Shown here in pieces: positions 13,317 to 32,831 of a stretch of DNA of 64,000 nt. Origin of the DNA: an uncultured Acidobacteriota bacterium (lineage in GTDB: Bacteria; Acidobacteriota; Vicinamibacteria; Vicinamibacterales; 2-12-FULL-66-21); NCBI GenBank assembly GCA_963750935.1, contig CAVVSR010000004.1, positions 20,829-84,828 of the forward strand, given 5' to 3'. How positions within the stretch are numbered: position 1 is the first letter of the stretch; the number at the start of each line of letters is the position of its first letter. A program made the position numbers and the translations under genes. The notes below the pieces were generated by a model that had not been told where the DNA came from, searched no databases, and saw nothing but the letters and a program-made list of their open reading frames with translations.

Positions 13317-13333
13317 CGGAGGAACTTATGGAC

Positions 13334-13786
13334 TCACTCGATTCTGGCGAGGCCGATCGCGACGGTAGGGTTGGTCGGGGTAAAGGTCTTCTCCGCGGCC
13401 ACGTAGCCCGGTGCGGAGGCGCGCACCGTCAACTCGACGTCGCTGACGAGCCCCTTGAACTGAAACCCGCCGCTGTGCGCCCACGCGTCGCAGGGTGTGA
13501 CCTGCTTGACGATCTCGCCGATCCGCTGACCGCGGACGATCTCAACCGTCGCGTCAGGGATGCAGATACCGTTGGCGTCGACGACGAATCCCCACAGGAG
13601 CGTCGCGACAGAAGGCGGACCAGGTGGAACGGGCGGAACTGGTGGAGGAGCAGGGGGAACGATCTCGGGCCTGGCAGCCGGGTCTGGCGACGTTGGCGGC
13701 CTGCCCTGCTCTGAGCACGCGACGACGGTGCACAGCAGGAGGACAACCAGTCCAATCGAGGATTTCCGCCGGGGGTCAGTAAACAT
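13334..13786 (-). CDS. Lipoprotein with carboxypeptidase-regulatory-like domain
   Basis: ATG at 13786, lipobox VVAC, Pro-rich linker, LWGFVVDANG.CIPDATVEI...VRASAPGY. Confidence 0.7.
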   Translation of the reverse strand: MFTDPRRKSSIGLVVLLLCTVVACSEQGRPPTSPDPAARPEIVPPAPPPVPPVPPGPPSVATLLWGFVVDANGICIPDATVEIVRGQRIGEIVKQVTPCDAWAHSGGFQFKGLVSDVELTVRASAPGYVAAEKTFTPTNPTVAIGLARIE

Positions 13787-14012
13787 GGTGCAACCCCGTT
13801 CGAAACCATTTGGGACCGGATCTGGTCGCGAGCATACCACGCGGCGTCCCGAGTGCAACGGACGCGAGATCGACCAGGCTCGGGAGCCAGCACACGGCAC
13901 GGCGTCATCGTAATCGCGGACAAATCTGTGGCCGTTCGACAGAACCGTCAGCCGACGCGCGCAGCGTGGTAGAAAGCATGGCCCTCCGCGTTGCTCCTCC
14001 TCAGCATCCACT

Positions 14013-15151: not shown

Positions 15152-16015
15152 CTAGACGTCGCAGACCGTCACAGCCTCCCGCAGGCCTTCCATGGCGCCT
15201 CGCGTCGGGATGAACTCGTGGGCGACGTACCCGCTGTAGCCGACGTCGAGGAGCGCCTGCATCAGCGGCGCGTACCGCAGTTCCTGCGCATCGTCCAGCT
15301 CACCGCGGCCCGGGACGCCGGCCGTGTGGACATGGCCGATCAGATCCGCGCCGTACTGCCGGATCCGGCCGATGATGTCGCCGTGCATGATCTGCACGTG
15401 GTAGATGTCGAACAGCAGCTTGACGCGGGGCGATCCGACCTGACGGATGATGTCGGCGCAGTAGTCGACGTCATCACCCTGGTAACCGGGGTGGCCCTTG
15501 AAATCGTGGTCGGCGACACGAGTGTTCAGGTGTTCCAGGACGATCGTGACGCCGTGCCGCTCGGCGTCGCGCGCCAGCGCTTTGAGGCCTTTCACCGTGT
15601 TGGCGGTGGCCTCGTCGCGAGGGATCTCGCCGCTCGTCGGGTTCTCGGCATCACGCCACCTGTAGCCGGTGAACGCGATCACCGACGGCACCTTCGCCTG
15701 AGCGCACTCCTCGATCCGCCTGCGGGTGCGTGAGAGGACCTCCTCGTGGTAGCGCGGGTTGTTCAGGCCTTTCATGTAGGGCGGACCGGGCATGCCGTTG
15801 AGCGCGACGGCGCAGGTGAGTCCGGCTGATTCGAGGGTTGGCCAGTCGTCCGGGCCCACCAGATCGAGCGCCGGACAGCCGAGATCGCGAGCGGCACGGC
15901 ACACGCCCCCCAGATCCCATTTCTCGCCGAAGAGCATGTAGGGCCACGCGACGACAGCCTGCCGGATGCGGCCGTTGCGGATGGCGGGTCCTTCCTTGTC
16001 CTGCGCGTGTGTCAA
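15152..16015 (-). CDS. Hydroxypyruvate isomerase-like TIM barrel (AP endonuclease 2 family)
   Basis: LEHLN, GHPGYQGD, LLFDIYHVQIMHGD, HVHTAGVPGRGEL and GYVAHEF. Confidence 0.88.
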   Translation of the reverse strand: MTHAQDKEGPAIRNGRIRQAVVAWPYMLFGEKWDLGGVCRAARDLGCPALDLVGPDDWPTLESAGLTCAVALNGMPGPPYMKGLNNPRYHEEVLSRTRRRIEECAQAKVPSVIAFTGYRWRDAENPTSGEIPRDEATANTVKGLKALARDAERHGVTIVLEHLNTRVADHDFKGHPGYQGDDVDYCADIIRQVGSPRVKLLFDIYHVQIMHGDIIGRIRQYGADLIGHVHTAGVPGRGELDDAQELRYAPLMQALLDVGYSGYVAHEFIPTRGAMEGLREAVTVCDV

Positions 16016-16240: not shown

Positions 16241-16591
16241 ATGAAGCAATACCTGCTCAGCATTTACCAACCCGACGGTCCGCCGCCGGCAGATCTCGAC
16301 CTGGAAAGCATCATGCGCGACGTGCACGCCCTGCAGGACGAGATGAAGCGGGCCGGCGCGTGGGTGTTCTCAGCCGGGTTGCACCCGCCGGACACCGCCA
16401 CAGTCGTCCGCGTCCAGGATGGAGAGGTGCTGTTGACCGACGGACCCTACACCGAAGGCAAAGAGCACCTCGGGGGATTCAGCATCATCCGGGCCGCCGA
16501 TCTCGATGCGGCGCTCGACTGGGGCCGGCGGCTCGCGCGCGTGCTCACGCCGCTGGCGATCGAGGTACGCCCGTTCCAGGACGATCACTGA
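16241..16591 (+). CDS. YciI/DGPF-family protein
   Basis: GLHPPDTATVVR, TDGPYTEGKEHLGGF, IEVRPF; TGATG overlap with the sigma factor. Confidence 0.9.
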   Translation: MKQYLLSIYQPDGPPPADLDLESIMRDVHALQDEMKRAGAWVFSAGLHPPDTATVVRVQDGEVLLTDGPYTEGKEHLGGFSIIRAADLDAALDWGRRLARVLTPLAIEVRPFQDDH

Positions 16592-17823
16592 TGCCGGAGG
16601 CGCACGACCTCACCACGCAGGAGATCGAGCGTGTGTTCCGTCAGGAGTACGGTCGTGCGGTGGCCGTCCTGGTTCGCTGCTTCGGCGACATCACCATGGC
16701 GGAGGAAGCCGTCCAGGAGGCATTCGCGACAGCGCTGCAGCGCTGGCCGTCGGCCGGGATCCCACCGAGCCCTCCGGCCTGGATCATCACCACCGCGCGG
16801 AACCGCGCGATCGATCGATTTCGGCGTGACGCGTCGCGACAGGCCCGACAGTCGCAGTACGCCGCGCTGCAGCACGCCGACGAAGCGGCGGACGAGGATC
16901 TCGTGACGGACCAGCGCCTGCGCCTGATCTTCACGTGCTGTCACCCGGCGCTCGCGCAGGCCGCGCAGGTGGCCCTGACGCTGCGGCTGCTCGGCGGTCT
17001 GACGACGGCGGAGATCGCGCGGGCGTTCCTGGTGCCGGAGAGCACGATGGCGCAGCGACTCGTGCGGGCCAAGGGCAAGATTCGCGACGCCAGCATCCCG
17101 TATCGCGTGCCCGACGCCGCTGAGCTCCCGGTGCGCCTGCGGTCGGTACTCGCCGTCGTCTATCTGATCTTCAATGAAGGCTACGCCGCGAGCTCGGGGC
17201 ACCAGTTGGTCCGCGACGACCTGTCTCGCGAGGCGATTCGTCTCGGCCGGCAGCTCGCCGAGCTGATGCCGGACGAACCCGAGGTGATGGGGCTCGTCGC
17301 CCTGATGCTGCTGATCGAGTCGCGCCGTTCCGCGCGACTCACGGCCGGTGGAGATCTCGTGCTGCTGGCCGATCAGGATCGACGGCAGTGGGATCGTGCG
17401 CTGATCGCCGAGGGACAGGCGATCGTGCGCCGCTGCCTGGCGCGGAACCAGCCGGGGCCGTACCAGATCCAGGCGGCGATCAACGCCGTCCACAGCAGCG
17501 CCGCCAGTGCCGATGCTACCGACTGGCGGCAGATCCTGCAGCTCTACGATCATCTGCTGTCGGTCGCGCCCGGCCCGGTCGTCGCGCTCAATCGCGCGGT
17601 GGCGGTCGCGGAAGTCCACGGACCGCACGCGGCGCTGACCCTCATCGACGGCCTCCCGCTCGACCGCTACTATCTCTTTCACGCCATCCGCGCAGATCTC
17701 CTGCGGCGTCTCGGCCGCACTACCGAAGCGGCATCAGCCTACGAGGCGGCGATCGCGCTCAGTGGAAACGCCACCGAACGCGGCTTCCTCACCCACCGCC
17801 GCGACACGCTGCTCCATCCCTGA
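16591..17823 (+). CDS. ECF RNA polymerase sigma factor, ECF42-type with C-terminal TPR extension
   Basis: AEEAVQEAF, WIITTARNRAID, LRLIFTCCHPAL, VYLIFNEGY and GPYQIQAAI; preceded by a YciI gene. Confidence 0.92.
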   Translation: MPEAHDLTTQEIERVFRQEYGRAVAVLVRCFGDITMAEEAVQEAFATALQRWPSAGIPPSPPAWIITTARNRAIDRFRRDASRQARQSQYAALQHADEAADEDLVTDQRLRLIFTCCHPALAQAAQVALTLRLLGGLTTAEIARAFLVPESTMAQRLVRAKGKIRDASIPYRVPDAAELPVRLRSVLAVVYLIFNEGYAASSGHQLVRDDLSREAIRLGRQLAELMPDEPEVMGLVALMLLIESRRSARLTAGGDLVLLADQDRRQWDRALIAEGQAIVRRCLARNQPGPYQIQAAINAVHSSAASADATDWRQILQLYDHLLSVAPGPVVALNRAVAVAEVHGPHAALTLIDGLPLDRYYLFHAIRADLLRRLGRTTEAASAYEAAIALSGNATERGFLTHRRDTLLHP

Positions 17824-19121: not shown

Positions 19122-20950
19122 TCAGCCTCCGGTGATCGCGCGACGCTCGTCGTTGAAGCCGAACGAGAAGACCGTCCCGTCCTGGGCGCCGACGTAGATC
19201 TGTCCGAGGCCGCTCCAGAAGCTGCCGGGCGACGCGAACGTCGGCATGGCCGTGCCGCTCTGCCAGAACCGCTTGCCCGAGGCGCCGTCGTAGGCGTGCA
19301 GGACCGCGCCCGTCCCGCGGCCGCCCGCGGCGGCGGGCCTGCCGGTCGCCAGCGTGAACACCACGCCATTGACGATGATCGGCGTGCCGGCCGCCGCCAG
19401 GTTGTGCGACACCCAGCCAGGCTCCAGCGACAGCGCGCCGCCGGCATCCACGATCTTCAACGCGACCACGGCGCCGGTGGTGACCGGGCCGTTGGTCGCA
19501 GGCATCCCTGCGGCGACGCGGCCCGCGAGGGGCAACAGGATCCAGGACGTGGCCGGGGCCGACGGCGTCGGCTCGCCGGCAGCGGCCTGCTGCCACGCCG
19601 CGAGCGCGTCGGCGCTGACCGTCGCGCCGGCGCCGCCCATCGGTTTCGATGCAAACAGCGGCGTCGAGTGATTGGCGCCGCCGAGCGAGGCCGAGTCCAG
19701 CAGCAGCACGCGGCCGTCCTTCGTCGCCGCGGCCACGATCTCCTTGTCGCCGTGGCGCAGGATCGTCGGCCCGGTGGCGAACTCGGCGGTCGGCGCCGTG
19801 AACCAGTCCTTCACCTGCAGTGTCTTCGGATCGAGCGCCACGATCGCGTTCGCCTTGCCGTCACCCGACGCCTGACCGGCGCCGATCGCCGCGATCAGCG
19901 TCCCGGTCGAGGTGAACGCCAGCGCGCCGACGACCGGGCCGCCGTTGGTCTTCCACGACGTGACCGGCTTGCTCTCGCTGTCGAGATCGATCGCCCACAC
20001 CGCGTCCGGCGCGCCGCCGCACCCTCCGGACGTTGCCGTATACAACATCGTGTCGACGCCAATCGGCGCCGACCATTTCGCGTTCGCCGGGAGGAATGGC
20101 GCCGGCTTCTGGATGTCCTTGCCCGACGGCAGGCCGAGCACGTGCAGCACGCCGTCGCTCGACACCACGTAGACGACACCCGACGGACGTCCGAGAAAAC
20201 CGCCCCCGCCGCCTTCCGCCGCCTTGGGCGCGCCAGGGATTCGCTCAGCCTGCCCGCGGCCACCCGCGGCAGGCGCTCCCCCGCCTCGTTGCGGTCCAGC
20301 GCCGCGGCCCGCATCTGCCGGCGCTCCGCCACGCGCACCTCCGGGTGCGGCCGCTGGCGGTGCGCTCGCGCGCGCCGCCCGGTGCGCGGCCCGCGGCCGC
20401 CGATTCGTCCCTCGACCGGCACGCCTTCACCCGGCTCACCGAGCAGCGTGCGATAGCCGACCGCACCGCGTCCGCCGCCGAAGGGATTCGCGGTTGCCGC
20501 GGTCGCCGAGGCGTCGAGCCGGACGATGCGGGTGGCGGCGGCGGTGATGCCGCCGGGACACGCCGCCGTTCCCGCCGGGACGACCACGTCGAACTGGCGC
20601 TCCCACACGGCGTAGCCGAGGTCGTTGTCGATGCCGTAGACGTTGTTCGAACTGCCCGCCACGAGCGACATCGGCACGAACAGCGTGACGCCGCTGGCCG
20701 TCACGCCCTGCGCCGGGCCGTGGACGCCGCGCGGACGGTTCTCGAGCTTCTTCTTCCACTGCAGCTCGAACCCCGGCTTCGCCATCGTCTGCGGCGAGAT
20801 CTTGTCGTCGCTGCGGATCCATGACGTCCGCTGCGCGTCGGCGAGCGCCGTCGGCCACTGCGATCCGCCGCGGCCGACCTGCGCGAACGTGACCGTTGCC
20901 GCGCAGGCGGCGGCAGCCACGGTGAAGATGACTCGATGAACCCGGCGCAT
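19122..20950 (-). CDS. Exported PQQ-type beta-propeller protein; frame break at about 20390
   Basis: Signal peptide, ADAQRTSW, FELQWK, SSDGVLH, VALDPKTLQVKDWF, LHAYDGASGKRFWQSG; Gly/Arg-rich linker. Confidence 0.8.
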
Positions 20951-20964
20951 GCGATTCTCCCGCC

Positions 20965-22554
20965 TCACCGTGCGACCCCGAAGCAATAGAGGACGCCGTC
21001 GAAGGTCGCGAGATACGCGCGGCCGTTCGCGACAGTGAGTCCGCTGAAGTGATTCCACGATTCGATCGTCGTGCCGCTCGACCAGAGCTCCTTGCCGGTC
21101 TGCGCGTCGAGCGCGTAGAGCGCGGCCTTCCTGGAATTGGGCACGCGGCGCACGGGACCCGAGCTGAGGCCGCCGCCGTAGACGCCGCCGCCAGGTTCGT
21201 CCCAGGCCCGATCCTGCACGACCTGGGTGCCGTCCTCGCCTGCCGCATACGCGAACACGACCCCGTTGGCGATGACCGCTTCATCCGCCAGATCCATGTC
21301 GCGCGACAGCCACGCCGGCGTGAGCTGCCACTTGCCGGCACGCCCTTCGAGCTTGAACGCGGCGACGCCGCCACCCTTCGGCCGCGAATGCTCGACCGGC
21401 GCCTTGAACGTCTCGCTCACCGGTCCCCAGAACGGCGCCAGCACCCACTGCGTGCCCTTCGCGTCCTGCCACGCGCCGAGCGCGCCCCAGATCCCTTTCG
21501 CGTCGAAGGCCTGCGCATCGTTGCAGATCAGCGGCGTCGTGTGCAGCGTGGTCCGGTGGTCCTCGCCGCCGAGCGCGTCGCGATCCATCAGCCAGAGGCG
21601 GCATTCCTTGGAGGTGCCGACCAGGAACTTGCGCCCCTGCGTGTCGAACGCCACCGGCGTGGTGTTGACGTCGAGGTCGCGCCGCCACAGCCAGTTCGCG
21701 TTGGGCGCGCCGAAGAAATCCACGAGCTGCAGCTGCTTGTTCGCGTCCAGCTTCACGGCGACGATGCCGTTGCCGAGCCGCCGGGTCAGCGGATCGAACA
21801 TCGCGTCGCCGGTGCCGAGGAACACGCGCCCTTCCGGATCGATCGCCGCGCCGCGCCGTCCCCAGAGGCCGCCGCCGGCGGGAATGAACGCGCTCGACCG
21901 CCGGGACGAGAGGTCGAACGAGTAGAACGCGTTGGTCAGGCCGCCGCAGCCCTGCGCCGTCGCCGTATAGATGACGCCGCCGTGCAGGTTGAGCGCATAC
22001 GGCTTGCCGCCGCCGGGGATGAACTTCTCCGCCGCGGCGATGTCCTTGCCGTCCGCGGCGTTCACCTGCCGGAGCCGGCCGTCCCACGACACCGCATACA
22101 CGGTGTACGCGCCGTCCGCCGTCCGTGCCATCGTCGGCACCGCGGTCTGGCCGCCCGGGCACAGGGTGTCGTTGGTGCCGCCGGGCTTCGCCAGCGTGCT
22201 GTCCCAGCGGCGGTGCCAGATCTGCTTGCCGGTGGCGGCGTCGATCCCGAACAGATCGTCCGACACGCCGGCGACGATCGCGATCTCGCGCGCCCCCTCC
22301 GCGGTGGTGACCCGCTCGGCGATCAGCGGCGCGAACAGGTTGTGCATCGCGCGCGGCGTGCTCTCCAGCTTGGTCTTCCACAGCAGCTTCGTCTGCCCGA
22401 CGTTGGCGGTCGAGAAGACCTTCTCGTCCCGCACCCAGCCGGTCCGCGCGCTGTCCACGCCTTCGCTGAGGATATCGGTGGCGTTCCCTGTGATCCCCGC
22501 GGCCAGGGTTGCGATCGCCACCCCCGCCACACTCCATGCGCCCGCCCGTTTCAT
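20965..22554 (-). CDS. Exported PQQ-type beta-propeller protein
   Basis: Signal peptide, DSARTGW, LLWKTKL, IDAATGKQIW, GLWGRRG, LYALDAQTGKELWSSG. Confidence 0.85.
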   Translation of the reverse strand: MKRAGAWSVAGVAIATLAAGITGNATDILSEGVDSARTGWVRDEKVFSTANVGQTKLLWKTKLESTPRAMHNLFAPLIAERVTTAEGAREIAIVAGVSDDLFGIDAATGKQIWHRRWDSTLAKPGGTNDTLCPGGQTAVPTMARTADGAYTVYAVSWDGRLRQVNAADGKDIAAAEKFIPGGGKPYALNLHGGVIYTATAQGCGGLTNAFYSFDLSSRRSSAFIPAGGGLWGRRGAAIDPEGRVFLGTGDAMFDPLTRRLGNGIVAVKLDANKQLQLVDFFGAPNANWLWRRDLDVNTTPVAFDTQGRKFLVGTSKECRLWLMDRDALGGEDHRTTLHTTPLICNDAQAFDAKGIWGALGAWQDAKGTQWVLAPFWGPVSETFKAPVEHSRPKGGGVAAFKLEGRAGKWQLTPAWLSRDMDLADEAVIANGVVFAYAAGEDGTQVVQDRAWDEPGGGVYGGGLSSGPVRRVPNSRKAALYALDAQTGKELWSSGTTIESWNHFSGLTVANGRAYLATFDGVLYCFGVAR

Positions 22555-22764
22555 GATCATCACCGGGGGATTCTCGACGATGAACGCGATCGAGGACAAG
22601 TCGGAGGCGCGGCGGCACGGTCGTCTCGTAGTGCGAACCGCGGCCCGCGGCGCCACCCCGGCGGTTCTGGCGGGCAAACAGTCGTCGAGCGCTGAAAACG
22701 GTCGCGCCTCGTCCGCGGCGGCCCGCCTTCGGCATTTCGCGGTGAGAGACGGGACACCTTCGGA

Positions 22765-22801
22765 AAGTTAAAAGTGAAAAGTCAAAAGGGAGAAGTCAAA
22801 A
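22765..22801. repeat. AAAAGT(C/G/T) heptamer tandem repeat
   Basis: aagttaaaagtgaaaagtcaaaagggagaagtcaaaa. Confidence 0.6.
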
Positions 22802-22862
22802 TGTCGCAGGCGATGGCGCACGGGTAAAGTCATACCGTGCCCATGCATCTCAGGGAGCGTCC

Positions 22863-23393
22863 ATGCTGTCGTCGATGATTCGTGTGTCCGTGGTGTTGGG
22901 GGCGGTTCTCGGCACGGCCGTCGTGCTGGCGGCGCGGCAGGGCGCGCCGCAGGTCCTCTCGGGCGAGGGGCTGCCGGACGGTCCGGGCAAGGACGTGACG
23001 GTGAAGGCCTGCGCCCCGTGCCACGAGGCGCGGCGCGCGGCGTCGGTCAGGCTGACGCGCGAGGGCTGGGCCGCCGTGATCGACGGCATGCAGAAGCGCG
23101 GCGCCAAGGTGTCGGACGAGGAGTTTCCGATCATCCTCGACTACCTCTCGACGCACTTCCTCGGTGCGGCGCTGCAACCGCTCAACCTGAACACGGCCAC
23201 CCAGATCGATCTCGAAGCAGCCGGCGGGCTGCTGCGCCGCGAAGCGGCGGCGGTCATCAAGTATCGGGAGCAGAACGGCCGCTTCACGTCGGTGGACGAC
23301 CTGAAGAAGGTGCCGGGGCTGGACTTCAAGAAGATCGAGAGCCGCAAGGACGCCGTCGTCGTGCATGGCTCCGCCGCGGGTCGAATTGCCTGA
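22863..23393 (+). CDS. Exported monoheme cytochrome c fused to a ComEA-like helix-hairpin-helix domain
   Basis: Signal peptide, LPDGPGK..CAPCH, R.T.EGW..VIDGM..RGA, then LNLNTAT...YREQNGRFTSVDDLKKVPG. Confidence 0.88.
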   Translation: MLSSMIRVSVVLGAVLGTAVVLAARQGAPQVLSGEGLPDGPGKDVTVKACAPCHEARRAASVRLTREGWAAVIDGMQKRGAKVSDEEFPIILDYLSTHFLGAALQPLNLNTATQIDLEAAGGLLRREAAAVIKYREQNGRFTSVDDLKKVPGLDFKKIESRKDAVVVHGSAAGRIA

Positions 23394-23502
23394 CGACTGT
23401 CGGCGATCGGCGATCGGTGATCGCGCGGCGCGGTCGATCGGCTAGATCGGAGCCATCGGTCGACCGGTGTGTGTCGCCTCCTACGCAACGTCGAGGCGAC
23501 GG

Positions 23503-24474
23503 CTAGCGCGGCGCCGCCGGCGCGGGCGCGTCACGCTTCGCGTGCGGCTGCACCGGCGTGTCGCTCAGGCCGAGCGACCACTTGATCGCCTCGAACATCA
23601 TGATCTGGACGTTGCGGATGTCCCAGGCCTCGGGGCTGTGCGAGAGCGAGCTGTAGACGACGCGGCCCTGGCCGTAGGTTTTGGTCCAGACCAGCGGGAA
23701 GTCGCCGTCGGCGGCCAGCTTCGACGTGGGCGCGCTCGCCGGATCGAAGCGCAGCAGCACGTCCACCTTGTCGCGCGACAGCGCCGCGGCGCGATAGAAC
23801 TCGTCGCTGTAGTCGGCGCTCGCGCCCCAGTGGCGCACGATCGGATGCGCGGGCTGCTCGTTGACCATGCGGCCAGGTCCCGTGTAGAGGTGCCCGCCGT
23901 AGGTGGCCCCCAGCATCTCGCCGAACTCCGGCCACGATTCGAACGCGGTCAGCCCGGTGTGCGCCGCGACGAAGCCCTTGCCGCTCTGCACGAACGCCAG
24001 CAGCTCCGCCTTCTGCTGATCGTCGATCGGCACGTCGCGGTGCCCGAGGAAGAAGATCCCGTCCACGTTGCTCAGGCTCGGCCCGCCGCTCGCCGGCGTG
24101 CCGTCGGTCTTCTTCGCCTGGTTGAAGATGATGTGGGAGTCGGTGCGGATGAACGTATCCCAGAGGCCGGAGTCGTAGCCGAGCCGCTCGACGATCGCCA
24201 GCGCATGCGAGGTGAAGGCGTGCTGCGCCTGGCCATTGCGGGTGTCGGCCCAGGCGAGCAGCGCCTTGCGCACGCGGGGCTGGTTGCCTCCCCGGCCGCG
24301 ACCCTGCCGGCCGCCGCCGGCGCGGCCGCCCGGTTGATCGGGAGCCTGGCCGACTCCGGCCTGTCCACCGGCCGGCGGCTGCGGACCGCGCGCGAGCGCC
24401 GTGACCGCCAGCATCAGCGCGAGGCTGACGGCCACTGCCGGAATCCCCAACGACCTTCGTGCGTGCTGCGACAT
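23503..24474 (-). CDS. Exported ThuA-like (class I glutamine amidotransferase-like) protein
   Basis: Signal peptide, LLAFVQSGKGFVAAH, DEFY, PLVWTKTYGQGRVVYSSLSH. Confidence 0.85.
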   Translation of the reverse strand: MSQHARRSLGIPAVAVSLALMLAVTALARGPQPPAGGQAGVGQAPDQPGGRAGGGRQGRGRGGNQPRVRKALLAWADTRNGQAQHAFTSHALAIVERLGYDSGLWDTFIRTDSHIIFNQAKKTDGTPASGGPSLSNVDGIFFLGHRDVPIDDQQKAELLAFVQSGKGFVAAHTGLTAFESWPEFGEMLGATYGGHLYTGPGRMVNEQPAHPIVRHWGASADYSDEFYRAAALSRDKVDVLLRFDPASAPTSKLAADGDFPLVWTKTYGQGRVVYSSLSHSPEAWDIRNVQIMMFEAIKWSLGLSDTPVQPHAKRDAPAPAAPR

Positions 24475-25046
24475 CAGCGCTTCGCCGCCTTCTCTTCGCG
24501 AACGATCTCGACCAGCGACCGCAGCCCCGCGGTATAGGAGCGCCAGCCCAGCCCCATGATCGCGCCGCGCACCGCCGGCGTCAGGATCGAGTGGCGGTGG
24601 ATCTCGTCTCGCGTGGCGAGGTTCGAGATGTGGACCTCGAGCACCGGGAACGGCATCGCCTTGATGACGTCGTGAATCGACACGCTGCTGAACGTCAACC
24701 CGGCCCCGTTGATCAACGCCCCATCCACGTCGTCGATGTGCTTCTGGAAGGTGTCGACGATCGTGCCCTCGGAGTTCGACTGCATCGCGATCAGCTCGAC
24801 GTTGAGCTCCTTGGCGAGCTCGCCGAGCCGCGCGTTGATCTGGTCGAGGGTCGTGCTGCCGTAGATCTGCGGCTCGCGGCGGCCGAGCAGGTTCAGATTG
24901 GGCCCGTGGATCACGAGCACCCGAAGCCGAGGCGCCGGCTGTATGGCTGGCTCGACGTCCGGCCCGATCCTGGCGCCGGCCGTGGTCGAGAGCGTGGCGG
25001 CGGCAAGCGCCACCAGGAGGCTCCAGCGTCGAAACGTCACACCCAT
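24474..25046 (-). CDS. aroQ: Type II 3-dehydroquinate dehydratase with N-terminal export signal
   Basis: VIHGPNLNLLGRREPQIYG, QSNSEG, EVHISN; preceded by MGVTFRRWSLLVALAAATLSTTAGA. Confidence 0.9.
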   Translation of the reverse strand: MGVTFRRWSLLVALAAATLSTTAGARIGPDVEPAIQPAPRLRVLVIHGPNLNLLGRREPQIYGSTTLDQINARLGELAKELNVELIAMQSNSEGTIVDTFQKHIDDVDGALINGAGLTFSSVSIHDVIKAMPFPVLEVHISNLATRDEIHRHSILTPAVRGAIMGLGWRSYTAGLRSLVEIVREEKAAKR

Positions 25047-25090
25047 CGATCGCTCCTTCGGTCGTTCGTTGTGTAGGGCCAGCGACATGC

Positions 25091-26193
25091 CTATCGCAGG
25101 TGGCGACGGAAGAAGTCGCGCGCGACGGCAAAGGCGCCGGCGCGGTCCTCGCGCTGCGCTTCCGGGCCGCCGCGCGGATGCTCGCGCACCTGCATGCGGA
25201 AGGGCCCGGCCACCTCGTCCAGGTCGGTCCGGTTGAAGAAGGTATGCGGCAACCCGTCGATCAACCGCAGCGTCACGTCCCGACCCGCGTCCCTCAAGGC
25301 TTCGTAGAGCAGGACGCTCTGCCCGTGCGGGACCGAGGCGTCGGCCAGGCCGTGCATGATCAGGAACGGCGGCGCGTCCTTCGTCACGTAGGTGATCGGG
25401 CTGGCCGCGCGCACACGATCCGGCACCGTCTGGACGCCAGCGCCGAGCAGGCGCGACTCCGGAGACGCTGGATCGTCATGCGGGACGGCACCGCGTCGTC
25501 CGCCGCCCGGGGGTGGCCCGGCCGCGCCGGCCGGAGGTGGAGGCCCGCTTCCTCGCTCCCCTCCTCGCTCCCCTCCTCGTCCGCCGCCGCAACGTTGATC
25601 GTCACCACCGGCTTCTGCAGCGCCGGCCGCTCCTGCTCGGTCTGTGCGTCCATGCGGTCGAAGCGGGTTGGCCCGTAGGCATCGAGCACGCACCGGACCG
25701 CGCTCGTGTGATTCAGGTTGTCGGTCCCCTCGAACGTGCCGCGAGGCGCGAGTCCCGCGACCGCCGCGAGGTGTCCGCCAGCCGACGTCCCCCACAGGCA
25801 GATCCGATCGGGATCCAGCGCGTGCGCGGCCGCGTTCGCCTTCAGCCAGCGCACCGCGGTGCGGACGTCCTCGACGTTGGCGGGGAACGTGACCGACGGC
25901 GTCAATCGGTACTCGATGGACGCCATCGCGAAACCGTCCTGCGCGAAGTAGCGCCTGAAATCCGGCCCCGTCGTGCGTGTCCCGCCAGACCAGCCGCCGC
26001 CGTGCAGGAACACGATGACCGGGATCGGCCGCCGAACCGGGGTGGCCGGCAGGTAGAGATCGAGGACCAGATCGGCGCCGCCGCGCGTGGCGTAGGTCAG
26101 CGTCCGCGGTTCGACTGGCGCCGGCTCCTGCCGCGCGGTGATCGCCACGCTGGCCAGCACCACGGCCGCGAACGCGCCGATGACGCGGCTCAA
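25091..26193 (-). CDS. Exported alpha/beta-hydrolase esterase (HGGG-type, BD-FAE/HSL-like); frame break at about 25590
   Basis: LHGGGW, GTSAGG nucleophile elbow, [22 protein letters not shown]. Confidence 0.85.
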
Positions 26194-27590
26194 ATGAAAT
26201 CCTCCGGCCGCGGCTTGAGCGCGAGCGCGCGCTGCAGCTCCGGCGTGATCTCCCGGCTGATCGGCACACCGCAGATCGCCTGCGCGTGCGCGAGCAGCGC
26301 CGCGCGATCGGACAGCGCCGACGCCGCGCCCTTCGTCCAGATCGGATCCTGCGGCGGCAGCGGCAGCTTCGCCGGGTGGACGTCGAGCGGATAGCCGTCG
26401 GGGCCACGGCCGCTCATCTGCAGCGAGCGGAACATGTCGGCGCCGCCTCGCCCGCGACCCTCGCCTCCGGCCCGAGCGCCGCCGCGGCCGTCGCCGCGAC
26501 CCTCTCCTGCACCACGACCGCGGGCTCCGCCGCCGCCGCGCGTGAAGAAGCTCTCGAAGATGCCCGGCGTCAGGAACGCCGCGAACCGGTTGTACTCCTG
26601 GTTCAGGCGGAACCCGTGCAGGTTGCGCGGCGGCGCCTGGAAGTAGTCGCCGGTGCGGAGCGGCACGGCCTTGCCGTAGGCCCAGCCCAGGGTCTCGCCG
26701 TCGACGCCGAAGAAGTTCTCGAAGTGCCGCGCGTGGAAGTGCGCGCCGACGCCGCCCCCCGGCCCGCCTTCGGTGATGATGAACAGGAACTGACCCGTGG
26801 TGTTGGCGTTGCGCGCCAGGAAGGTGTTGCCGCCGAAGCGCTCACCGCCGCCGTCGGCCAGCACGTACGGCCCAGGCGTCACCGGCAGCTGCTTGTTGGC
26901 GACGCGAACGGCGGCACCGGCAGGCGTCGCCGCCGGCGCGAGCTGGAAGTCGCCGGCATCGGCCGCACGCGCGAGACGCCCTGCCGCGATCTCGTGCGGC
27001 ACGTTCGCCGGCACCTGCGCCCCGTCCTGCCGCTCCCCCATCGCCGTGAACGCCGCGCCGACGCGATGGTTCATCGAGAACAGCGCCAGCTGCGCCCCGT
27101 CCGACTTCATCGTCCATGCATGCGGCGTCCCGGGCGGCAGGTTGGCGAAGTCCCCGCGCATCATCGTCCAGCGCTCGTCTCCGAGCTCGAACTCGATCTC
27201 GCCGCGCATCACGAGCACCGCGGCGTGGCTGCTCAGATGCGTGTGCCGCGGCATCGTCGCGCCGGTGTTGCCGGTGAACGAGGCGAGCTCGTGGACGTCG
27301 CCGGTGTCTTCGCGCCGCGCGATCCGCCGCATCACCTGACTGCCGATGCGGTGATACTCGCCGGCGTCGTTCGGCAGCACGTACATGCGCTTCTGCCCGG
27401 GCAGCTTGCCGATGACCGGCACGGCCTCGGCGCCGCTCACCTCCACCGGGTTGAGGATCTCATCGGGAATACCCGCAACCGGGGCCTGGGCGAACAGGCC
27501 CGTCGAGCGCGACAGGTGCCAGCCCGCGAGCCCGCCGCCGGCCGCCAGGGCCGCGGTGTTCATGAACCGCCGCCGATTCCACTGTCCCAT
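26190..27590 (-). CDS. Tat-exported bicupin, quercetin 2,3-dioxygenase-like
   Basis: NRRRFM Tat motif. Cupin 1: HTHLSSHA...PGTPHAW. Cupin 2: HFHARHFE...PRNLHGF. The layout resembles Bacillus QdoI. Confidence 0.75.
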
Positions 27591-27625
27591 CGCTGCCTCC
27601 TTGAAGAACGGACGTGCCGTGACGC

Positions 27626-28459
27626 TCACGGGACCGCGACGCGGTCGGCGCTTCGCCTCACGACGTCGAAGAGCTCCTCGGGCTGCCACGAGTTCGACGC
27701 GAACATCCGCATCACCCGGCCATCGTGGCCGACCACGGCCGTCGTCAGCGTATGCGTGACGAAGCCGCCCTCGGCCCGCGCAGCGACGCCGAAATATTCG
27801 GCGATGGCTTCGATCTGCGCGGCGGTGCCCGTGGCCAGCGTCCACTGCTCGAACGGATCCGGTCCCTTCAACACCGCCTGGCCGTAGTCGCGAAGCACGG
27901 CCGGCGTGTCGAATGCGGGGTCGAGGGTGATGCCGAGCACGGACACTTTGCTGCCGAAGCCTTCGTCGTTCGCGCGCTGACGCACCCGCTCGAGATGCCT
28001 GACCATGAGCGGACAGAGATCGGGCAGCGGGCACCGCGTGTAGAGGAAAGTGATGAGGAGGACGCGGCCGGCCCGTTCGCGCACCGTCACGTCGCGGCCG
28101 TGCTGATCGACCAGGCCGAAGTCGGGCAGCATCGCACCCGGCATCGCCCGGCCGCCGGCGGAGAACCGCACCGGCGCGACGGCGCCCTGCGCCGTGATCT
28201 TCACGTCCTCGAGCCAGCTGCGATCCGCGGTCACGACGAGCGTCGACACGATTCGGTCGCCCTCTCGCGGCGGCGGGCCATCGCCCGCGATCTCGAACGG
28301 CATGCTCATCGCGGGCATGAAGCCGTCCACCGCGTCGTGCGCAATGACCACGCGGCCGGCCGGGGCTTCGCGGCCGACGACCACCCCGGTCAGTTGGACG
28401 CGGCGGATCTCGGGGGATCGATCGCGTGCGCACGCGGCTGCCGAGACGATGACCATCAA
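27626..28459 (-). CDS. CusF-like copper-binding domain fused to SCO1/SenC; true start may be 28523 via a frame break
   Basis: IAHDAVDGFMPAMSMPF (CusF H/M/M), FLYTRCPLPDLCP, DPAFDTP and VTHTL. Confidence 0.85.
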   Translation of the reverse strand: MMVIVSAAACARDRSPEIRRVQLTGVVVGREAPAGRVVIAHDAVDGFMPAMSMPFEIAGDGPPPREGDRIVSTLVVTADRSWLEDVKITAQGAVAPVRFSAGGRAMPGAMLPDFGLVDQHGRDVTVRERAGRVLLITFLYTRCPLPDLCPLMVRHLERVRQRANDEGFGSKVSVLGITLDPAFDTPAVLRDYGQAVLKGPDPFEQWTLATGTAAQIEAIAEYFGVAARAEGGFVTHTLTTAVVGHDGRVMRMFASNSWQPEELFDVVRRSADRVAVP

Positions 28460-28534
28460 CGGCAGCGGCGACCGCGCCGGATGCGCGACGTCCCGGACGC
28501 GGTCGAGCGGCGCGCTTCTCCATTGCCGGATCGA

Positions 28535-30295
28535 TCACCGGTCGGCGCAGCGATACGACGCCGCGTCGGCGGCGGGGCCGCCAAGATATTTCGGGAACTG
28601 CGGGTAGGAACACAGCGGCAGCGTGCGTCCGCCGCCGGTCAGGGCGATCGACATGCCCGGAGCAGCACGCCGCTCGACCCAATCGACGAGCAGCGCAAAC
28701 CGCTCGAACGTCGTCGGCAGCGGCGTCCGCTCCAGCGGCTTGCCGGCGCCGTCGATGTCGGCAGTGCGCGCCATCAACCCGTGATTGGCCTGGGGGATGA
28801 CGAACAGCCGCGCGAACTCGTCGACGGTGCGACGCCCCATCGTGTCGAGGACCGACTGGTAGTAGTCGAGTTGGGCACCCGGCGACGCGAGCGTGTCGTC
28901 CGTGCCGATGGTGACGATCATCTTTCCGCCGCGCTTCGCGAAGGGCCGGAGATCCGGATCGGTCGAATCGAGCACCGCGGAGAGCTCCTCGCGGCGGCGG
29001 TTCCAGCGATCGCCCTCGACGTAATCGAGCGGGTTCGCGGCCAGGTCGCGCATCAGGAAGCCGGTCACGCCGAGGACGCCGAGATGGCCGTGCACCGGCG
29101 CATCCGCGGCCGCCCCTTCCTGTCCCCTGAAGCGCACGTCGGCGATGAGGCCGCTGCCGGACGGGTCGGTGTTTGGCACCCACATGCCGAAGGTCGTGGC
29201 GCGGTGCGCCAGCGGCGTCGCGAATCGATAGCGGCTGTAGACGAACTCGAGGGTCGAGATCTGCCCGTCGGTCAGGCAGGCGGCGGCGGTCGCGTCGGAC
29301 GGATTCGGATCGACGTTGTCCGGACAGCGTCTGGCGGCCCACGGCCGGCGGCCCGGTGTGCCCTGCTTGACGTCGAAGATCGCCCGGCACGCCATGTAGG
29401 CGTTGATGACGCCGTCGGTCAGGCCGTCGAGCTGATCGCACTGCCGCACGAACTCGGCGCGGATCGCGTTGGTCTTGGCGCGCGTGATCCAGTTGGCCGC
29501 CGGCTTCTCCTGAATCCGGACCAGCTCCGGCGCCAGCATCAGCGACGAGAGCCCGACGATCGGCACGTTGGCGATCACGCCGTCGTAGTCCGCGGGATAG
29601 CGCTGCGCGACGGTCAGGCCTTCGCGTCCGCCCTGCGAGGTGCCGGTGAAGTAGGTGTAGCGCGGCGCTTCGCCGTAGACGCGACGGATCAGCGCGTGCG
29701 CGGCGTCGTGCGTTTTCTTCAACTGCAGGTAGCCGAGGTTGCGGATGGCTTCCTCGTTGAGCGCCCAGTCGTTGGACGCCGGCTCGCCACTCCTGCCCCG
29801 GCCAAACGACGACTGGTGACCGGAGTCGCTGCCGTAGGTCACGAAGCCCCACTGCGCCGGCGAGCGGCCGTCGATCGGATACTGCGCGCCGCGCAGGTCC
29901 GGAACGACCCCGTTCATGCCGCCGCCACCATGCTGCACCGCACGGCGATTCCACTCGGCGGGCAGCCAGACGCGGAAGTTGATGCGCCTGGCGGAGGGCG
30001 CCTGATCGATCGGCGCCATCGATCCGTCGACCTCGCATCGTGCCGGCAGCGACTCGCTGGCCGGCACCCACTTCGGTTCGAGCAGCGTCACTGCCGACAC
30101 CGGTTCGCCGATGGCGCTCGCCGGAATCGAGTCGCCAAGCTTCGCGACCGTGCAGTCGGCTGCGGTGATCACCACGGGACGATCGCCGAAGCGCGCGGCG
30201 GCGGGCGTCGCGGCCGGCTGGGCCGACGGACTCGCCCCGCCGGCGCTGACGGCCATCGAGAGCGCGCCCGCGGCCGTCAGGAACCGGACGTTCAT
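28535..30295 (-). CDS. Exported tannase/feruloyl esterase family protein
   Basis: WLPAEWNRR..QHGGGGMNG, GSDSGH, YFTGTSQGGREG..AQRYPADYDG, PDLRPFAKRGGKMI, PLCSYP. ATG at 30295 overlaps the upstream stop. Confidence 0.9.
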   Translation of the reverse strand: MNVRFLTAAGALSMAVSAGGASPSAQPAATPAAARFGDRPVVITAADCTVAKLGDSIPASAIGEPVSAVTLLEPKWVPASESLPARCEVDGSMAPIDQAPSARRINFRVWLPAEWNRRAVQHGGGGMNGVVPDLRGAQYPIDGRSPAQWGFVTYGSDSGHQSSFGRGRSGEPASNDWALNEEAIRNLGYLQLKKTHDAAHALIRRVYGEAPRYTYFTGTSQGGREGLTVAQRYPADYDGVIANVPIVGLSSLMLAPELVRIQEKPAANWITRAKTNAIRAEFVRQCDQLDGLTDGVINAYMACRAIFDVKQGTPGRRPWAARRCPDNVDPNPSDATAAACLTDGQISTLEFVYSRYRFATPLAHRATTFGMWVPNTDPSGSGLIADVRFRGQEGAAADAPVHGHLGVLGVTGFLMRDLAANPLDYVEGDRWNRRREELSAVLDSTDPDLRPFAKRGGKMIVTIGTDDTLASPGAQLDYYQSVLDTMGRRTVDEFARLFVIPQANHGLMARTADIDGAGKPLERTPLPTTFERFALLVDWVERRAAPGMSIALTGGGRTLPLCSYPQFPKYLGGPAADAASYRCADR

Positions 30296-31894
30296 GGGTT
30301 CAGCACGAACGCGACGAGCCGGCTCCCCGCTCCCGCAATCACGTACTGCAGGCCGTCGAGCTCGTAGGTGATCGGCCCGTTGGTCACGCTGTTGCCGACG
30401 CGCGCGTTCCAGAGCGGCTCGCCGGTGGTGGCGTTGTAGGCGCCGATGCCGCCGGCCGCGGCATTGAACAGGACGTTGCCCGCGGTGGTCAGGATGCCGG
30501 AGTTGCCGCCGTAACGGGGCATGCTCCAGCGCACCTTGCCGGTCTTGTAGTCGATCGCCTTCAACTGTGGCTGCTCGGCATAGCCGCCGCGATCGGTGCC
30601 GCCCCACCCCATCGGATTGTCGCTGGCGTCGTAGATGTACCAGACGCTGAACGCCCGCGTGGCATTCACATAGAAGAGGCCGGTCTGCGGACTGAAGCTC
30701 GGGGGAAACCAGTTGGTCGCGCCCCCCTGGTTCGGGCGTGACGAGCGCGCCGGCGATCTGCGGCCGCTTCTCCGGGTTCGGAATCGGCTGCCCCTTGCCG
30801 TCGTAGTCGAGGCTCCAGTTCGTCTTGATGTACTCCGACGAGACGACCGCCTTGCCGTTGGTCCGGTCGAGCAGGAAGAAGTGGCCGTTGCGCGACGCCT
30901 GCGCGATCAGCTTGCGCGGCTGGCCGTTGATCGTGCCGTCGAAGACCACCGCCGTCTGCGTCGCGTCCCAGTCGTGCGTGTCGTGCGGCGACGACTGGAA
31001 GTACCAGACCATCTTGCCCGTGTCGGCGTCGAGCGCCACGATCGACGCGGTGAACAGGTTGGCGCCTTCGCGGTTCTTGAACGCCACCACCGGCTGCGGG
31101 TTCCCGGTCGTCACGTAGATGTGATTCAGCACGGGGTCGTAGGTGATCGGCTGCCACGTCATGCCGCCGCCGTGCTTGGCCATGTCCAGGTTCGGCCAGG
31201 TGTCGAGCCCCGGTTCGCCTTCCTTCTGCGGCGTCACGTACCAGCGCCAGATCAGGTCGCCGTTCTCCGGGCTCCGCGCTTCGAGATACGCCGGCACGTC
31301 GAGGTCGTCGCCGCTCGGCCCGAGAATCAGCTTGTCCTTCACGACCACCGGCGCGATCGAGCCGTAATACATCATCTCCAGCGAGCAGAACTCCTTGGCC
31401 CACTTCTCGACGCCGGTCTTGATGTCGAGCGCCACGAGGTTGCAGTCCGTGGTGACGAAGTACACGGTGGTGCCGTGCACGGCGACGCCGCGATTGCCGA
31501 TCAGGATGCCGCCGCGGCTGCGGGTGAACGTGTAGTGCCACAGCTCGCGGCCGGTCCGCGCCTCGACCGCATACACGTGATTCGGCGTGGTGAAGTAGAG
31601 CACCCCGCCGATCTGGAGCGGCGTCGCCTTGATCGTGCCCCCGCCCGGCAGGTCGTAGAGCCACGCCAGGCTCAGATGCTTCACGTTGGCCGCCGTGATC
31701 TTGTTCAGGCTGCTGAAGCGGCGGCCGGAATAGTCCCCGTTGTAGGTCGGCCAGGAATCGCTCGACGGCTTTTCGATCTGTGCGGTGGTCAGGCCGGCCG
31801 ACCCGCCGGCCGGCGCGGCCTGCGGCGAGGGCTGCTGTGCGGCGAGCGCCGCCGACAGGAGAACGGCGGCGCAAAGACAGGTGACGACTCTCAT
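30292..31894 (-). CDS. PQQ-dependent dehydrogenase-like protein (acido-empty-quinoprotein group A type); frame break at about 30730
   Basis: WPTYNGDYSGRRFS, IKATPL, GGGMTW, SPHDTHDWDA, QASRNG; C-terminal NGPITYELDGLQY in the next frame. Confidence 0.88.
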
Positions 31895-32831
31895 TTCAGG
31901 GTCTCCAGGTAGGCAACCAGATCGTGAATCTGCTTGTCGCTGATGCGGTCGAGCAGGTCGATGTGCGCTTGCAGCGGGACGACCCTGGTGACCTTGATGC
32001 CCGGGGTGCGACGGACGACGCGAAGCGTGCCGTCCGTTTCACGCACGGTGATGTGGAAGTCGCTCTCCTCGACCAGCACTCCGGACACCGCGGGACCGGA
32101 CGCCGGCGTCAGCGTCACGGTGACGGCGTTCCGATCGACCGGCGGAGGTGTGCCGGTCGGATTGGCCGCCGCGCCGCCGCTCCCCGGCCGCCCCGTCCGC
32201 GGCCGCGTCCGCCGCCGCCGGGGAACAGCATCCGCTGCTGCAGGTCGACCGGGACCGGGATGCGCGTCGCGATTCCCGCAAGGTTGCGGTCGGTGGCGGT
32301 ATGGCACGTCGCGCACCCGCCGTCGCCCTTGAAATACGCCTCGCCAGCCTTCGCGTCGCCGACGACGATGTCGCCGACCGTGAACAGCGGCGAGCCGCGC
32401 ATCGTGTCGTTGACGCGCTGGCGGAGGAAATTCGCCAGCCCCACCACCTCGTCGTCAGTGAACGACTCGCTCGGCTTCTTGCTCTGCGTCGGGTGACCGG
32501 CCTTCAGAAAGGGCCCGAGGACGCTGCCGGCCACGGCCGCGAACCGATCGTAGTTCACCGTCTTCGTCCGGATGATGTTCGGGCCGGTATCCGACCCGCG
32601 CGCCTGCGAGCCATGGCAGTCGATGCAATGGCTCGCCCACAACGCGCGGCCGCGATCGTGAGCCGTCTGATCGACGACCAGGCGGGGCGCCGGCTGCACC
32701 GCGGGAGTCTGGGCCGGCGGCGGTGCGCCGCGTCCTCCGCCGCCCGGAGGCCCCTGCGCCGGGAGCATGGTGACCGCACAGAACACCACGGCCACACCCA
32801 TCGAGATCCGCTGACCCACACCGATGCCCAT
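31891..32831 (-). CDS. Diheme c-type cytochrome, partner of the quinoprotein; frame break at about 32190
   Basis: GGAGG RBS, signal peptide, CIDCH, GDAKAGEAYF..CATCH, C-terminal IHDLVAYLETLK overlapping the quinoprotein start. Confidence 0.88.

Follow-up and report, generated by a model that had tools for sequence, protein, structure and literature searches.

Do eight tightly packed genes for exported-type proteins in an uncultured acidobacterium encode a single periplasmic pathway, or are they separately inherited units that have come to lie side by side? The question is raised by a stretch of 64,000 nucleotides (nt) with ~70% GC (contig CAVVSR010000004.1 of assembly GCA_963750935.1, positions 20,829 to 84,828), hereafter the window, in which a diheme cytochrome c and a quinoprotein of the orphan family TIGR04528 head a minus-strand run that continues with a tannase-family esterase, a CusF-SCO fusion, a bicupin, a second esterase, a type II dehydroquinase (AroQ) and a ThuA-family protein. 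A first-pass annotation had proposed that these genes form one polyphenol and quinate-ester oxidation system built around the quinoprotein. Our comparisons favor a different reading, to which we assign a probability of roughly 0.6: the locus appears to be a real mosaic of four modules, each inherited separately, whose genes are probably co-transcribed and plausibly share a theme, the salvage of plant phenolic esters. A conserved eight-gene system can be rejected, as none of 80 related loci contains it and the closest share only the cytochrome and the quinoprotein with the window.

Reading frames were resolved from third-position GC, Pfam, NCBIfam and translations, and the co-oriented, overlapping run of genes described in the first-pass annotation was confirmed. 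Its eight members, all on the minus strand between 32831 and 23503, were identified from profile searches and translations as follows (PQQ, pyrroloquinoline quinone; Tat, twin-arginine translocation):

32831 to 31891, minus strand: diheme cytochrome c with Pfam Cytochrom_C and CBB3 matches, motifs CIDCH and CATCH, and a signal-like N-terminus
31894 to 30292, minus strand: quinoprotein of TIGR04528 ('acido-empty-quinoprotein group A'), a PQQ-type dehydrogenase of eight blades that carries the motif HDWD
30295 to 28535, minus strand: hydrolase of the tannase/feruloyl-esterase/MHETase family (PF07519, 304 bits) with a signal-like N-terminus
28459 to 27626, minus strand: fusion of CusF-like and SCO1/SenC domains (PF02630, 74.5 bits), a putative periplasmic copper chaperone
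27590 to 26190, minus strand: Tat bicupin with two Cupin_2 domains and the Tat motif RRRF
26193 to 25091, minus strand: esterase of the BD-FAE/hormone-sensitive-lipase type (PF20434) with serine motif GTSAG and a signal-like N-terminus
25046 or 25088 to 24474, minus strand: type II 3-dehydroquinate dehydratase AroQ (PF01220, 155.6 bits) with an N-terminal extension of ~40 residues
24474 to 23503, minus strand: ThuA-family protein (PF06283, 102 bits) with a signal-like N-terminus

Three start/stop overlaps join neighboring genes, ATGA at both the cytochrome/quinoprotein and the quinoprotein/tannase boundaries and TGATG between AroQ and ThuA; a TTGA overlap is possible between bicupin and esterase, and the remaining intergenic gaps within the run measure 0-75 nt. 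A crude Kyte-Doolittle script found a basic N-terminus followed by a hydrophobic stretch in all eight products and in the three flanking products described below, in line with the earlier claim of export signals on nearly every product. A promoter and terminator scan was uninformative, its counts being at chance level; it showed nothing resembling a terminator on the minus strand within the run. We infer that the eight genes are carried on a single transcript.

The separate histories of the modules are clearest for the first two genes. A scan of GTDB genomes with the quinoprotein yielded 80 loci at 54-95% identity, each with up to 10 kb of flank on either side, and every protein of the window was compared with them by tblastn. 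A homologue of the cytochrome is encoded directly upstream of the quinoprotein in 75 of these loci, and two of the five without such a match (L034 and L046; L numbers denote loci, G numbers genomes) have fewer than 100 bases of contig upstream. The expectation that the neighborhood as a whole would be conserved fails here: tannase, bicupin and AroQ are found within 10 kb of the quinoprotein in 0 of the 80 loci, and the eight closest (L001-L008, 76-95% identity) have in common with the window the cytochrome and quinoprotein only. Within the genome of the window (G000), five further TIGR04528-like paralogues were found (C2:49198-50673, C12:474726-476288, C13:470494-472071, C6:176484-178079 and C12:362917-364395), four of them with an upstream cytochrome c of their own. 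From these patterns the pair is a predicted self-contained two-gene periplasmic dehydrogenase and electron-acceptor unit, present in about five copies in this genome.

The recurrent companions of the cassette are of other kinds. A TIM-barrel gene lies no more than 1.5 kb from the cassette in 20 of the 80 loci and a ThuA-like gene in 7, and in a Pfam tally based on crude gene calls PF01261 matched 21 of 130 upstream neighbor open reading frames (ORFs). The downstream side is heterogeneous; from similarly crude calls, its 136 neighbor ORFs fell into 161 Pfam families, the commonest of which occurred in 6 ORFs. Many of the cassette-adjacent TIM barrels carry Tat signals, and they weakly resemble ketose epimerase, hydroxypyruvate or oxo-tetronate isomerase and inosose dehydratase, at scores far below the respective cut-offs. 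The genome of the window has 34 PF01261 matches in 6.44 Mb, with one within ~3 kb of each of three above-cut-off TIGR04528 paralogues. Such TIM-barrel and ThuA-like companions suggest keto-sugar or cyclitol chemistry, with a sugar, polyol or cyclitol alcohol as the kind of substrate to expect. A reading of the TIM barrels as AsbF-type dehydroshikimate dehydratases was considered and is unsupported, as their best matches are weak and are to the epimerase, isomerase and inosose-dehydratase types. Among the closest relatives, a different ThuA-like gene precedes the cassette in L001, L002 and L006, and in L002 two genes for 3-keto-disaccharide hydrolases (DUF1080) follow it; these flanking genes of L002 lie at 8146-9084 and 12148-13986.

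The AroQ-ThuA pair at the other end of the run is likewise inherited as a unit. AroQ scores above the family cut-offs of PF01220 (155.6 versus 23.3 bits), NF003807 (166.2 versus 130) and NF003805 (161.5 versus 146) and below that of the TIGR01088 equivalog (153.8 versus 169.85 bits), with a likely start at 25046 (MGVTFRR); ThuA covers positions 10-208 of the 209 of PF06283 at 102 bits, above the gathering score of 33.4, and its best match among solved structures is weak (E 5e-7). In G005, G006 and G022, AroQ orthologues (73-76%) are directly followed by a ThuA orthologue (80-88%) among unrelated genes, and in all three genomes the orthologous quinoprotein cassette (77-94%) lies on a different contig. 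G001 and G023 carry a quinoprotein orthologue (76-87%) and gave no AroQ match. The proposal that the cluster is built around the orphan quinoprotein is therefore not borne out by its relatives. A metagenome scan for AroQ gave ten contigs at 60% identity or more; in seven of them AroQ adjoins ThuA (L101, L102, L104, L105, L108 and L109 among them), and the other three end just after AroQ. The signal-like N-terminal extension of AroQ is kept in the orthologues L084-L086 and L108, and in all those of G005, G006 and G022. In L002, an AroQ and ThuA pair (1344-2700) located 8 kb from an intact cytochrome-quinoprotein cassette is broken by several frameshifts and substitutions, which looks like real decay and not like assembly error.

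AroQ is the sole dehydroquinase found in the window's own 90.5%-complete assembly, in which, oddly, no type I enzyme (PF01487) was detected. We consider it unlikely to be the housekeeping enzyme, despite that absence: type I dehydroquinase is present in 20 of 20 relatives (19 of 19 without the unpublished G002), in ORFs of ~500 amino acids (aa), versus type II in 2 of 20. This distribution supports AroQ as a probably accessory, signal-bearing enzyme in a lineage whose housekeeping dehydroquinase would be of type I.

What such an exported AroQ might do is suggested by two of the metagenome contigs. L108 (514-7118) encodes a soluble TIGR03074-like PQQ dehydrogenase (profile positions 154-782, no membrane anchor), a signal-bearing AroQ, ThuA, a QrcA/c7-like multiheme cytochrome, a shikimate dehydrogenase (NF009201, 430 bits versus a cut-off of 235) and a major facilitator superfamily (MFS) transporter, and we regard it as a candidate gene cluster for the periplasmic oxidation of quinate or shikimate beyond the acetic acid bacteria. 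In L109, a TonB-dependent receptor and a PQQ dehydrogenase of the same type are divergent from AroQ-ThuA. A search of four genomes for this type of PQQ dehydrogenase gave its best match (57%) in G022, where it stands beside a ThuA-like gene and the tannase orthologue; nearby are a second tannase, another PQQ dehydrogenase, a flavin adenine dinucleotide (FAD) monooxygenase and a Gfo/Idh/MocA oxidoreductase. It is reasonable to envisage a PQQ-linked route for quinate or shikimate in the periplasm that includes an exported AroQ, since AroQ-ThuA elsewhere adjoins a PQQ dehydrogenase, a c-type cytochrome, a shikimate dehydrogenase and an MFS transporter. The first-pass annotation had placed such a route in the window, and part of that proposal stands: AroQ-ThuA does adjoin a PQQ dehydrogenase in L108 and L109, but the enzyme there is TIGR03074-like and not of TIGR04528. 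An excerpt of PMC8102297 lists the use of aroQ for the conversion of quinate to 3-dehydroshikimate.

Comparison with characterized systems sharpens this distinction. The quinate dehydrogenase of Gluconobacter is ubiquinone-linked. The window resembles its quinate oxidation in having a PQQ dehydrogenase and a type II AroQ outside the cytoplasm (as predicted for the window), whereas the Gluconobacter enzyme is a membrane-anchored TIGR03074 protein and the window enzyme a soluble TIGR04528 protein with a cytochrome c partner; the Gluconobacter route is more closely paralleled by L108 and L109 than by the window, whose quinoprotein-AroQ link is conserved in 0 of 80 loci. In rhizobia, ThuA belongs to a trehalose-utilization operon of 3-keto-sugar chemistry. 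The window protein has the PF06283 domain in common with it, but is predicted to be exported and has AroQ as its partner in place of a Gfo/Idh/MocA oxidoreductase. A literature search for ThuA together with dehydroquinase or PQQ returned nothing relevant.

A third unit is formed by the CusF-SCO, bicupin and esterase genes. The bicupin is rare: 3 of 40 relatives have it, as does 1 of 300 genomes of the phylum. In each of the three relatives (L081-L083) it adjoins CusF-SCO and the esterase, with no other gene of the window nearby. As the earlier assignment had it, the bicupin is a homologue of the Bacillus subtilis quercetinase QdoI/YxaG (2h0v, 1y3t): it aligns with 2h0v at E 3.4e-55 over residues 62-353 (292 aligned). 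In this alignment the C-terminal metal site is complete (HxH..E..H, four of four ligands) and the N-terminal site keeps three His, its Glu being replaced by Ala (three of four). The window protein further differs from QdoI/YxaG by its twin-arginine signal and an extra C-terminal tail of ~110 aa, and its conserved neighbors are a CusF-SCO copper chaperone and an esterase. The SCO1/SenC domain of the chaperone is well above its gathering score (PF02630, 74.5 versus 22.8 bits), and its CusF_Ec domain is slightly below the cut-off (PF11604, 24.6 versus 27 bits). A possible lipobox (SAAAC) is present, and the Cys spacing is C-x5-C, where C-x3-C is normal for SCO proteins. Copper as the metal of the bicupin is suggested by the chaperone only.

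The esterase matches PF20434 at 140 bits in its N-terminal part and 57 bits in its C-terminal part, which is read in another frame. According to an excerpt of PMC4462102, the product of quercetinase is the depside 2-protocatechuoylphloroglucinol carboxylic acid, and the rutin pathway of fungi includes an esterase. Because the quercetinase makes a depside and the fungal pathway includes an esterase, the three genes may, by analogy, constitute a unit of chaperone, quercetinase and depside esterase. The order of steps in the fungal pathway, quercetinase and then esterase, fits the bicupin-esterase pair; by contrast with that pathway, the window system is bacterial and predicted to be exported, and its esterase is of the BD-FAE/hormone-sensitive-lipase type, with a depside as its presumed substrate.

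The tannase-family esterase, which stands between the cassette and this unit, matches PF07519 over its entire length (304.4 bits, positions 1-490 of 490, gathering score 29.8). Its nearest solved structures are MHETase (143 bits) and FaeB (109 bits), in agreement with the identity first given to it, and an NCBIfam search found no match to the tannase A or tannase B equivalogs; the substrate specificity of the window enzyme is not readable from sequence. Its orthologues in relatives (62-67%) lie in other contexts. One of these, L089 (G022:C124:14600-34500), has two tannase-family genes, an FAD monooxygenase of the aromatic-hydroxylase type, two ThuA genes, two TIGR03074-like PQQ dehydrogenases, a Gfo/Idh/MocA oxidoreductase, a haloacid dehalogenase (HAD) hydrolase and a GntR/LacI-type regulator.

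The family membership and active site of the quinoprotein bear on what the first module could oxidize. The window protein, split between two frames as discussed below, matches TIGR04528 with 555.4 bits (profile 1-373) and 182.6 bits (345-493), and its intact orthologue in L002 (86% identity) scores 737.5 bits, above the cut-off of 650. Scores for the methanol/ethanol family TIGR03075 remain below its cut-off of 480 (313.4 bits for the N-terminal part of the window protein, 410.4 for the L002 orthologue), and that for the membrane-bound quinate/shikimate/glucose dehydrogenases of TIGR03074 is far lower than required (144.5 versus 832.65 bits). The protein is ~533 aa long and has only a signal-like N-terminus, without a membrane anchor of the TIGR03074 type. 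Its best matches among solved structures are the type II quinohemoprotein alcohol dehydrogenases 1kb0, 1kv9 and 1yiq (285, 262 and 252 bits over ~480 residues); scores against 6zcv (238 bits) and 6dam (201 bits) are lower.

We take R122, W245, N263, D308, N394/W395, the Cys pair, E70 and E185 of 1kb0 to be residues with functional roles. Those aligned to R122, W245, N263, D308 and N394/W395 are conserved in the window protein; Lys stands in place of E70 and Asp in place of E185, and the vicinal Cys pair (C116-C117) is absent, with G-I at these positions in the window and a GGIH-like sequence across 85 relatives. The HDWD motif, which 83 of 85 family members carry (the window protein among them), aligns with the D-F-D of 6zcv. 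An excerpt of PMC11996626 gives D-x-D as an indicator of lanthanide binding and names 6ZCW as the lanthanide-dependent PedH, and an excerpt of a 2026 preprint reports many predicted lanthanide-PQQ enzymes in Acidobacteria. The active site looks PQQ-competent and carries the D-x-D lanthanide signature. Like the type II quinohemoproteins, the window enzyme would be a periplasmic 8-bladed PQQ propeller that passes electrons to a c-type heme; unlike theirs, which is a fused C-terminal domain, its cytochrome is a separate diheme protein encoded upstream, and the residue two positions after the catalytic Asp is Asp (D-W-D) where 1kb0 has Thr. With the lanthanide PQQ dehydrogenases (PedH 6zcw/6zcv, ExaF and XoxF) it has the D-x-D in common, and its partner is a diheme cytochrome of ~310 aa.

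The cofactor would have to come from outside the cell if the genome is representative. The absence of pqq biosynthesis genes from the window had been remarked on in the first-pass annotation, and it extends to the whole assembly (6.44 Mb, 90.5% complete), in which PqqE reaches at most 69.5 bits versus a cut-off of 381 and PqqB 39.7 versus 245; PqqC had no match either, a weak negative since the PqqC control matched nothing in the control genomes. We take the 'empty' of acido-empty-quinoprotein to denote a host genome without PQQ biosynthesis. The PQQ importer PqqU occurs in the class Vicinamibacteria, according to an excerpt of PMC12124388. On the most likely reading, the quinoprotein is a dehydrogenase that scavenges PQQ and possibly depends on a lanthanide. 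A full-text literature search for 'acido-empty-quinoprotein' found no paper, and the supplements of PMC11996626 and of the 2026 preprint may list the family under a PQQ alcohol dehydrogenase type.

Combining these lines of evidence, we propose that this lineage brought the eight genes together out of four modules, each of which is passed on separately elsewhere. In the first, the diheme cytochrome and the TIGR04528 quinoprotein would oxidize an alcohol substrate in the periplasm with scavenged PQQ. The second, translationally coupled to the quinoprotein, would be the tannase/MHETase-family aromatic-ester hydrolase. In the third, the Tat-exported quercetinase would cleave the flavonol ring to give 2-protocatechuoylphloroglucinol carboxylate, the depside ester of which the BD-FAE esterase would hydrolyze, and CusF-SCO would load the metal in the periplasm. 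The fourth, exported AroQ with ThuA, may elsewhere be part of a periplasmic PQQ-linked quinate/shikimate route.

It is important to note that every gene belongs to a known family; what is new is their arrangement, the contextual leads that it offers for TIGR04528, and two compact modules with predicted export. Soil Acidobacteriota are rich in TIGR04528 quinoproteins, with about five cassettes in the present genome, and the family now has four testable anchors in its diheme cytochrome partner, its lanthanide-type D-x-D motif, its likely dependence on scavenged PQQ and its Tat-exported TIM-barrel or ThuA-like neighbors. The putative Tat-exported quercetinase with its own copper chaperone and probable depside esterase is one compact testable module, and the exported AroQ-ThuA pair, elsewhere linked to candidate PQQ-dependent quinate/shikimate oxidation, is the other; both bear on how soil bacteria may process plant phenolics outside the cytoplasm. 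The locus also serves as a caution that a tidy operon in a single metagenome-assembled genome (MAG) is not a conserved pathway.

Several observations weigh against a mosaic of independent modules. The relatives are kin, and locus counts among them are not independent events; export was judged by the hydrophobicity script only. In G001, a tannase paralogue (34-47%) is directly upstream of an 87%-identical cassette, with a TIM barrel downstream; in G022, the tannase orthologue stands beside a PQQ dehydrogenase and ThuA; and in L002 the decayed AroQ-ThuA is only 8 kb from the cassette. Together these three links indicate that the modules are not wholly independent, and they favor an integrated pathway. 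The physical continuity of the run also has a gap in its independent confirmation. Contigs from Logan metagenomes (four runs, denoted by X numbers, from four studies) were aligned to the locus as independent evidence, and they bridge the quinoprotein/tannase junction (X4 record 16, 29958-30369) and the CusF-SCO/bicupin, esterase/AroQ and AroQ/ThuA junctions; the metagenome contig L100 has the same esterase-AroQ junction at 98-99% identity. Joints with 20-27 letters on their shorter side were left out of this evidence. No independent contig bridges the tannase/CusF-SCO junction, and the match of two contigs (X4 record 14 and X7 record 32) to the window breaks off at 28527, immediately after the stop codon of the tannase gene. 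In the strains behind X4 and X7 something else apparently follows the tannase, and the tannase/CusF-SCO junction may be specific to the strain or, with lower probability, result from a join made in assembly.

The strongest competitor of the mosaic is a single integrated pathway, in which the esterases would free quinate or another cyclitol acid from plant esters, the TIGR04528 quinoprotein and its cytochrome would oxidize it, AroQ would dehydrate the resulting 3-dehydroquinate and the bicupin would cleave the phenolic part; as a corollary, the TIGR04528 enzyme would take the place of the TIGR03074-like soluble PQQ dehydrogenase of other lineages. The packing of all eight genes with overlaps speaks for it, as do the coupling of quinoprotein and tannase across a junction recovered in an independent run, the accessory distribution of AroQ, the gene order of L108, the divergent arrangement of L109, the G022 neighborhood in which the L108/L109-type dehydrogenase lies beside ThuA and the tannase orthologue, and the links in G001 and L002 just described. 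Against it stand the 80 loci without AroQ, tannase or bicupin near the quinoprotein, the separation of cassette and AroQ-ThuA over different contigs in three genomes, the two genomes with a quinoprotein orthologue and no AroQ match, and the usual TIGR04528 neighbors, which resemble keto-sugar epimerases and isomerases. Moreover, the characterized quinate dehydrogenases belong to TIGR03074, a family from which the score of the window protein is remote. The combinations of a PQQ dehydrogenase with AroQ-ThuA and with tannase do recur, mostly with a different PQQ family. We judge the integrated pathway unlikely, and quinate as the substrate of the TIGR04528 quinoprotein is a minority possibility.

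The corollary can be extended into a bolder scenario. AroQ-ThuA would be the downstream half of a cytochrome-linked PQQ route for quinate or shikimate outside the acetic acid bacteria, ThuA would be a new periplasmic enzyme acting on 3-dehydroshikimate or 3-dehydroquinate, and a tannase-fed, lanthanide-type TIGR04528 enzyme would have displaced the TIGR03074-like dehydrogenase. If true, this displacement would give the orphan family its first substrate; we hold the scenario to be a long shot.

Neutral accretion, in which unrelated genes for exported proteins became adjacent in a variable region with no common flow of substrate and perhaps no common transcript, has several observations on its side. 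Relatives carry each of the modules by itself, few genomes have the bicupin module, the ORFs downstream of the cassette scatter over many families, and contigs from two runs diverge at the 3' end of the tannase. It accounts poorly, however, for the four-base and one-base overlaps that join different modules (quinoprotein/tannase and possibly bicupin/esterase) and for gaps as short as those within the run, and it leaves to coincidence that esterase, quercetinase, tannase and AroQ all fit plant-phenolic chemistry and that tannase-PQQ and AroQ-PQQ adjacency recurs elsewhere. We consider it distinctly improbable.

Four of the genes are split between frames, a feature absent from the first-pass annotation: the cytochrome at ~32203-32316, the quinoprotein at ~30733-30740, the esterase at ~25480-25600 and propeller 2, one of the flanking genes, at ~20200-20400. 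All breaks fall in G/C-rich, low-complexity DNA, that of the cytochrome in a Gly/Arg-rich and that of the esterase in a Gly/Glu/Arg-rich stretch. Intact single ORFs exist in relatives for the cytochrome and for a 533-aa quinoprotein (both in L002), and G023 has the esterase in a single frame. Contigs from X1, X4 and X7 (three studies) have one base fewer at 30733 or 30737 in the quinoprotein, after which the frame reads ...VTPNQGGATNW, identical to L002. One X4 contig has 11 letters fewer across 25348-25728, which span the esterase break, matching the spacing in L081 and in the in-frame G023 gene, and one X5 contig differs in length by 1 letter across 32081-32429, which span the cytochrome break. 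The split genes show no in-frame stops or other decay, third-position GC is high throughout, and related MAG loci have comparable splits in other genes. Because of the intact orthologues, the independent contigs and the similar splits in related MAGs, the four frameshifts are very probably assembly errors and not decay.

That the locus is decaying, with real frameshifts and with cytochrome, quinoprotein, esterase and propeller 2 as pseudogenes, could appeal to the 4 of 11 window genes that are split and to the truly decayed AroQ-ThuA pair of L002, but it is highly improbable given the absence of further decay, the low-complexity setting of every break, the intact-orthologue reading restored in three studies, length differences at the esterase and cytochrome breaks that are not multiples of three, and the different genes split in other MAGs of the group.

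Beyond the eight-gene run lie a gene for a cytochrome c with a helix-hairpin-helix (HhH) domain and two PQQ-type propellers, present as the first-pass annotation had described them, and a TIM-barrel gene farther away:

22863 to 23393, plus strand: cytochrome c plus helix-hairpin-helix (HHH_3) protein (Pfam), convergent with the eight-gene run
22677 to 20965, minus strand: PQQ_2/BamB-like beta-propeller 1 (PF13360, 44 bits, a score that is not that of a dehydrogenase)
21058 to 19122, minus strand: beta-propeller 2, with a weak Pfam match and translations in two frames
15152 to 16015, minus strand: xylose-isomerase-like TIM-barrel protein (PF01261, G000:C4:36013-36660), outside the eight-gene run

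The cytochrome c-HhH gene was considered as a universal third member of the cassette and rejected in that role, as 38 of the 44 matching loci align with its cytochrome domain only; judged by position, these 38 partial matches belong to the gene for the partner cytochrome, in its N-terminal part. Full-length homologues adjoin the cassette in 6 of the 80 loci, and also in L186 and L096. Homologues of propeller 1 occur near the cytochrome-quinoprotein cassette in L007 and L028, and the TIM-barrel protein is 39% identical to the one encoded beside the cassette in L043. In the interval from propeller 2 to the TIM-barrel gene, the window encodes a sigma factor of the extracytoplasmic function (ECF) type with DUF6596 (16360-17823, plus strand) and a class I methyltransferase (17789 to ~19000, minus strand).

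Gly/Arg-rich low-complexity stretches (GGGRGRGRGG-like) follow the signal or serve as linkers in the cytochrome (32203-32316), the C-terminus of the bicupin (27100-27000), the esterase (25480-25600), ThuA (24300-24380) and propeller 2 (20200-20400). Orthologues also carry such stretches, and at least three of the four frameshifts fall inside them.

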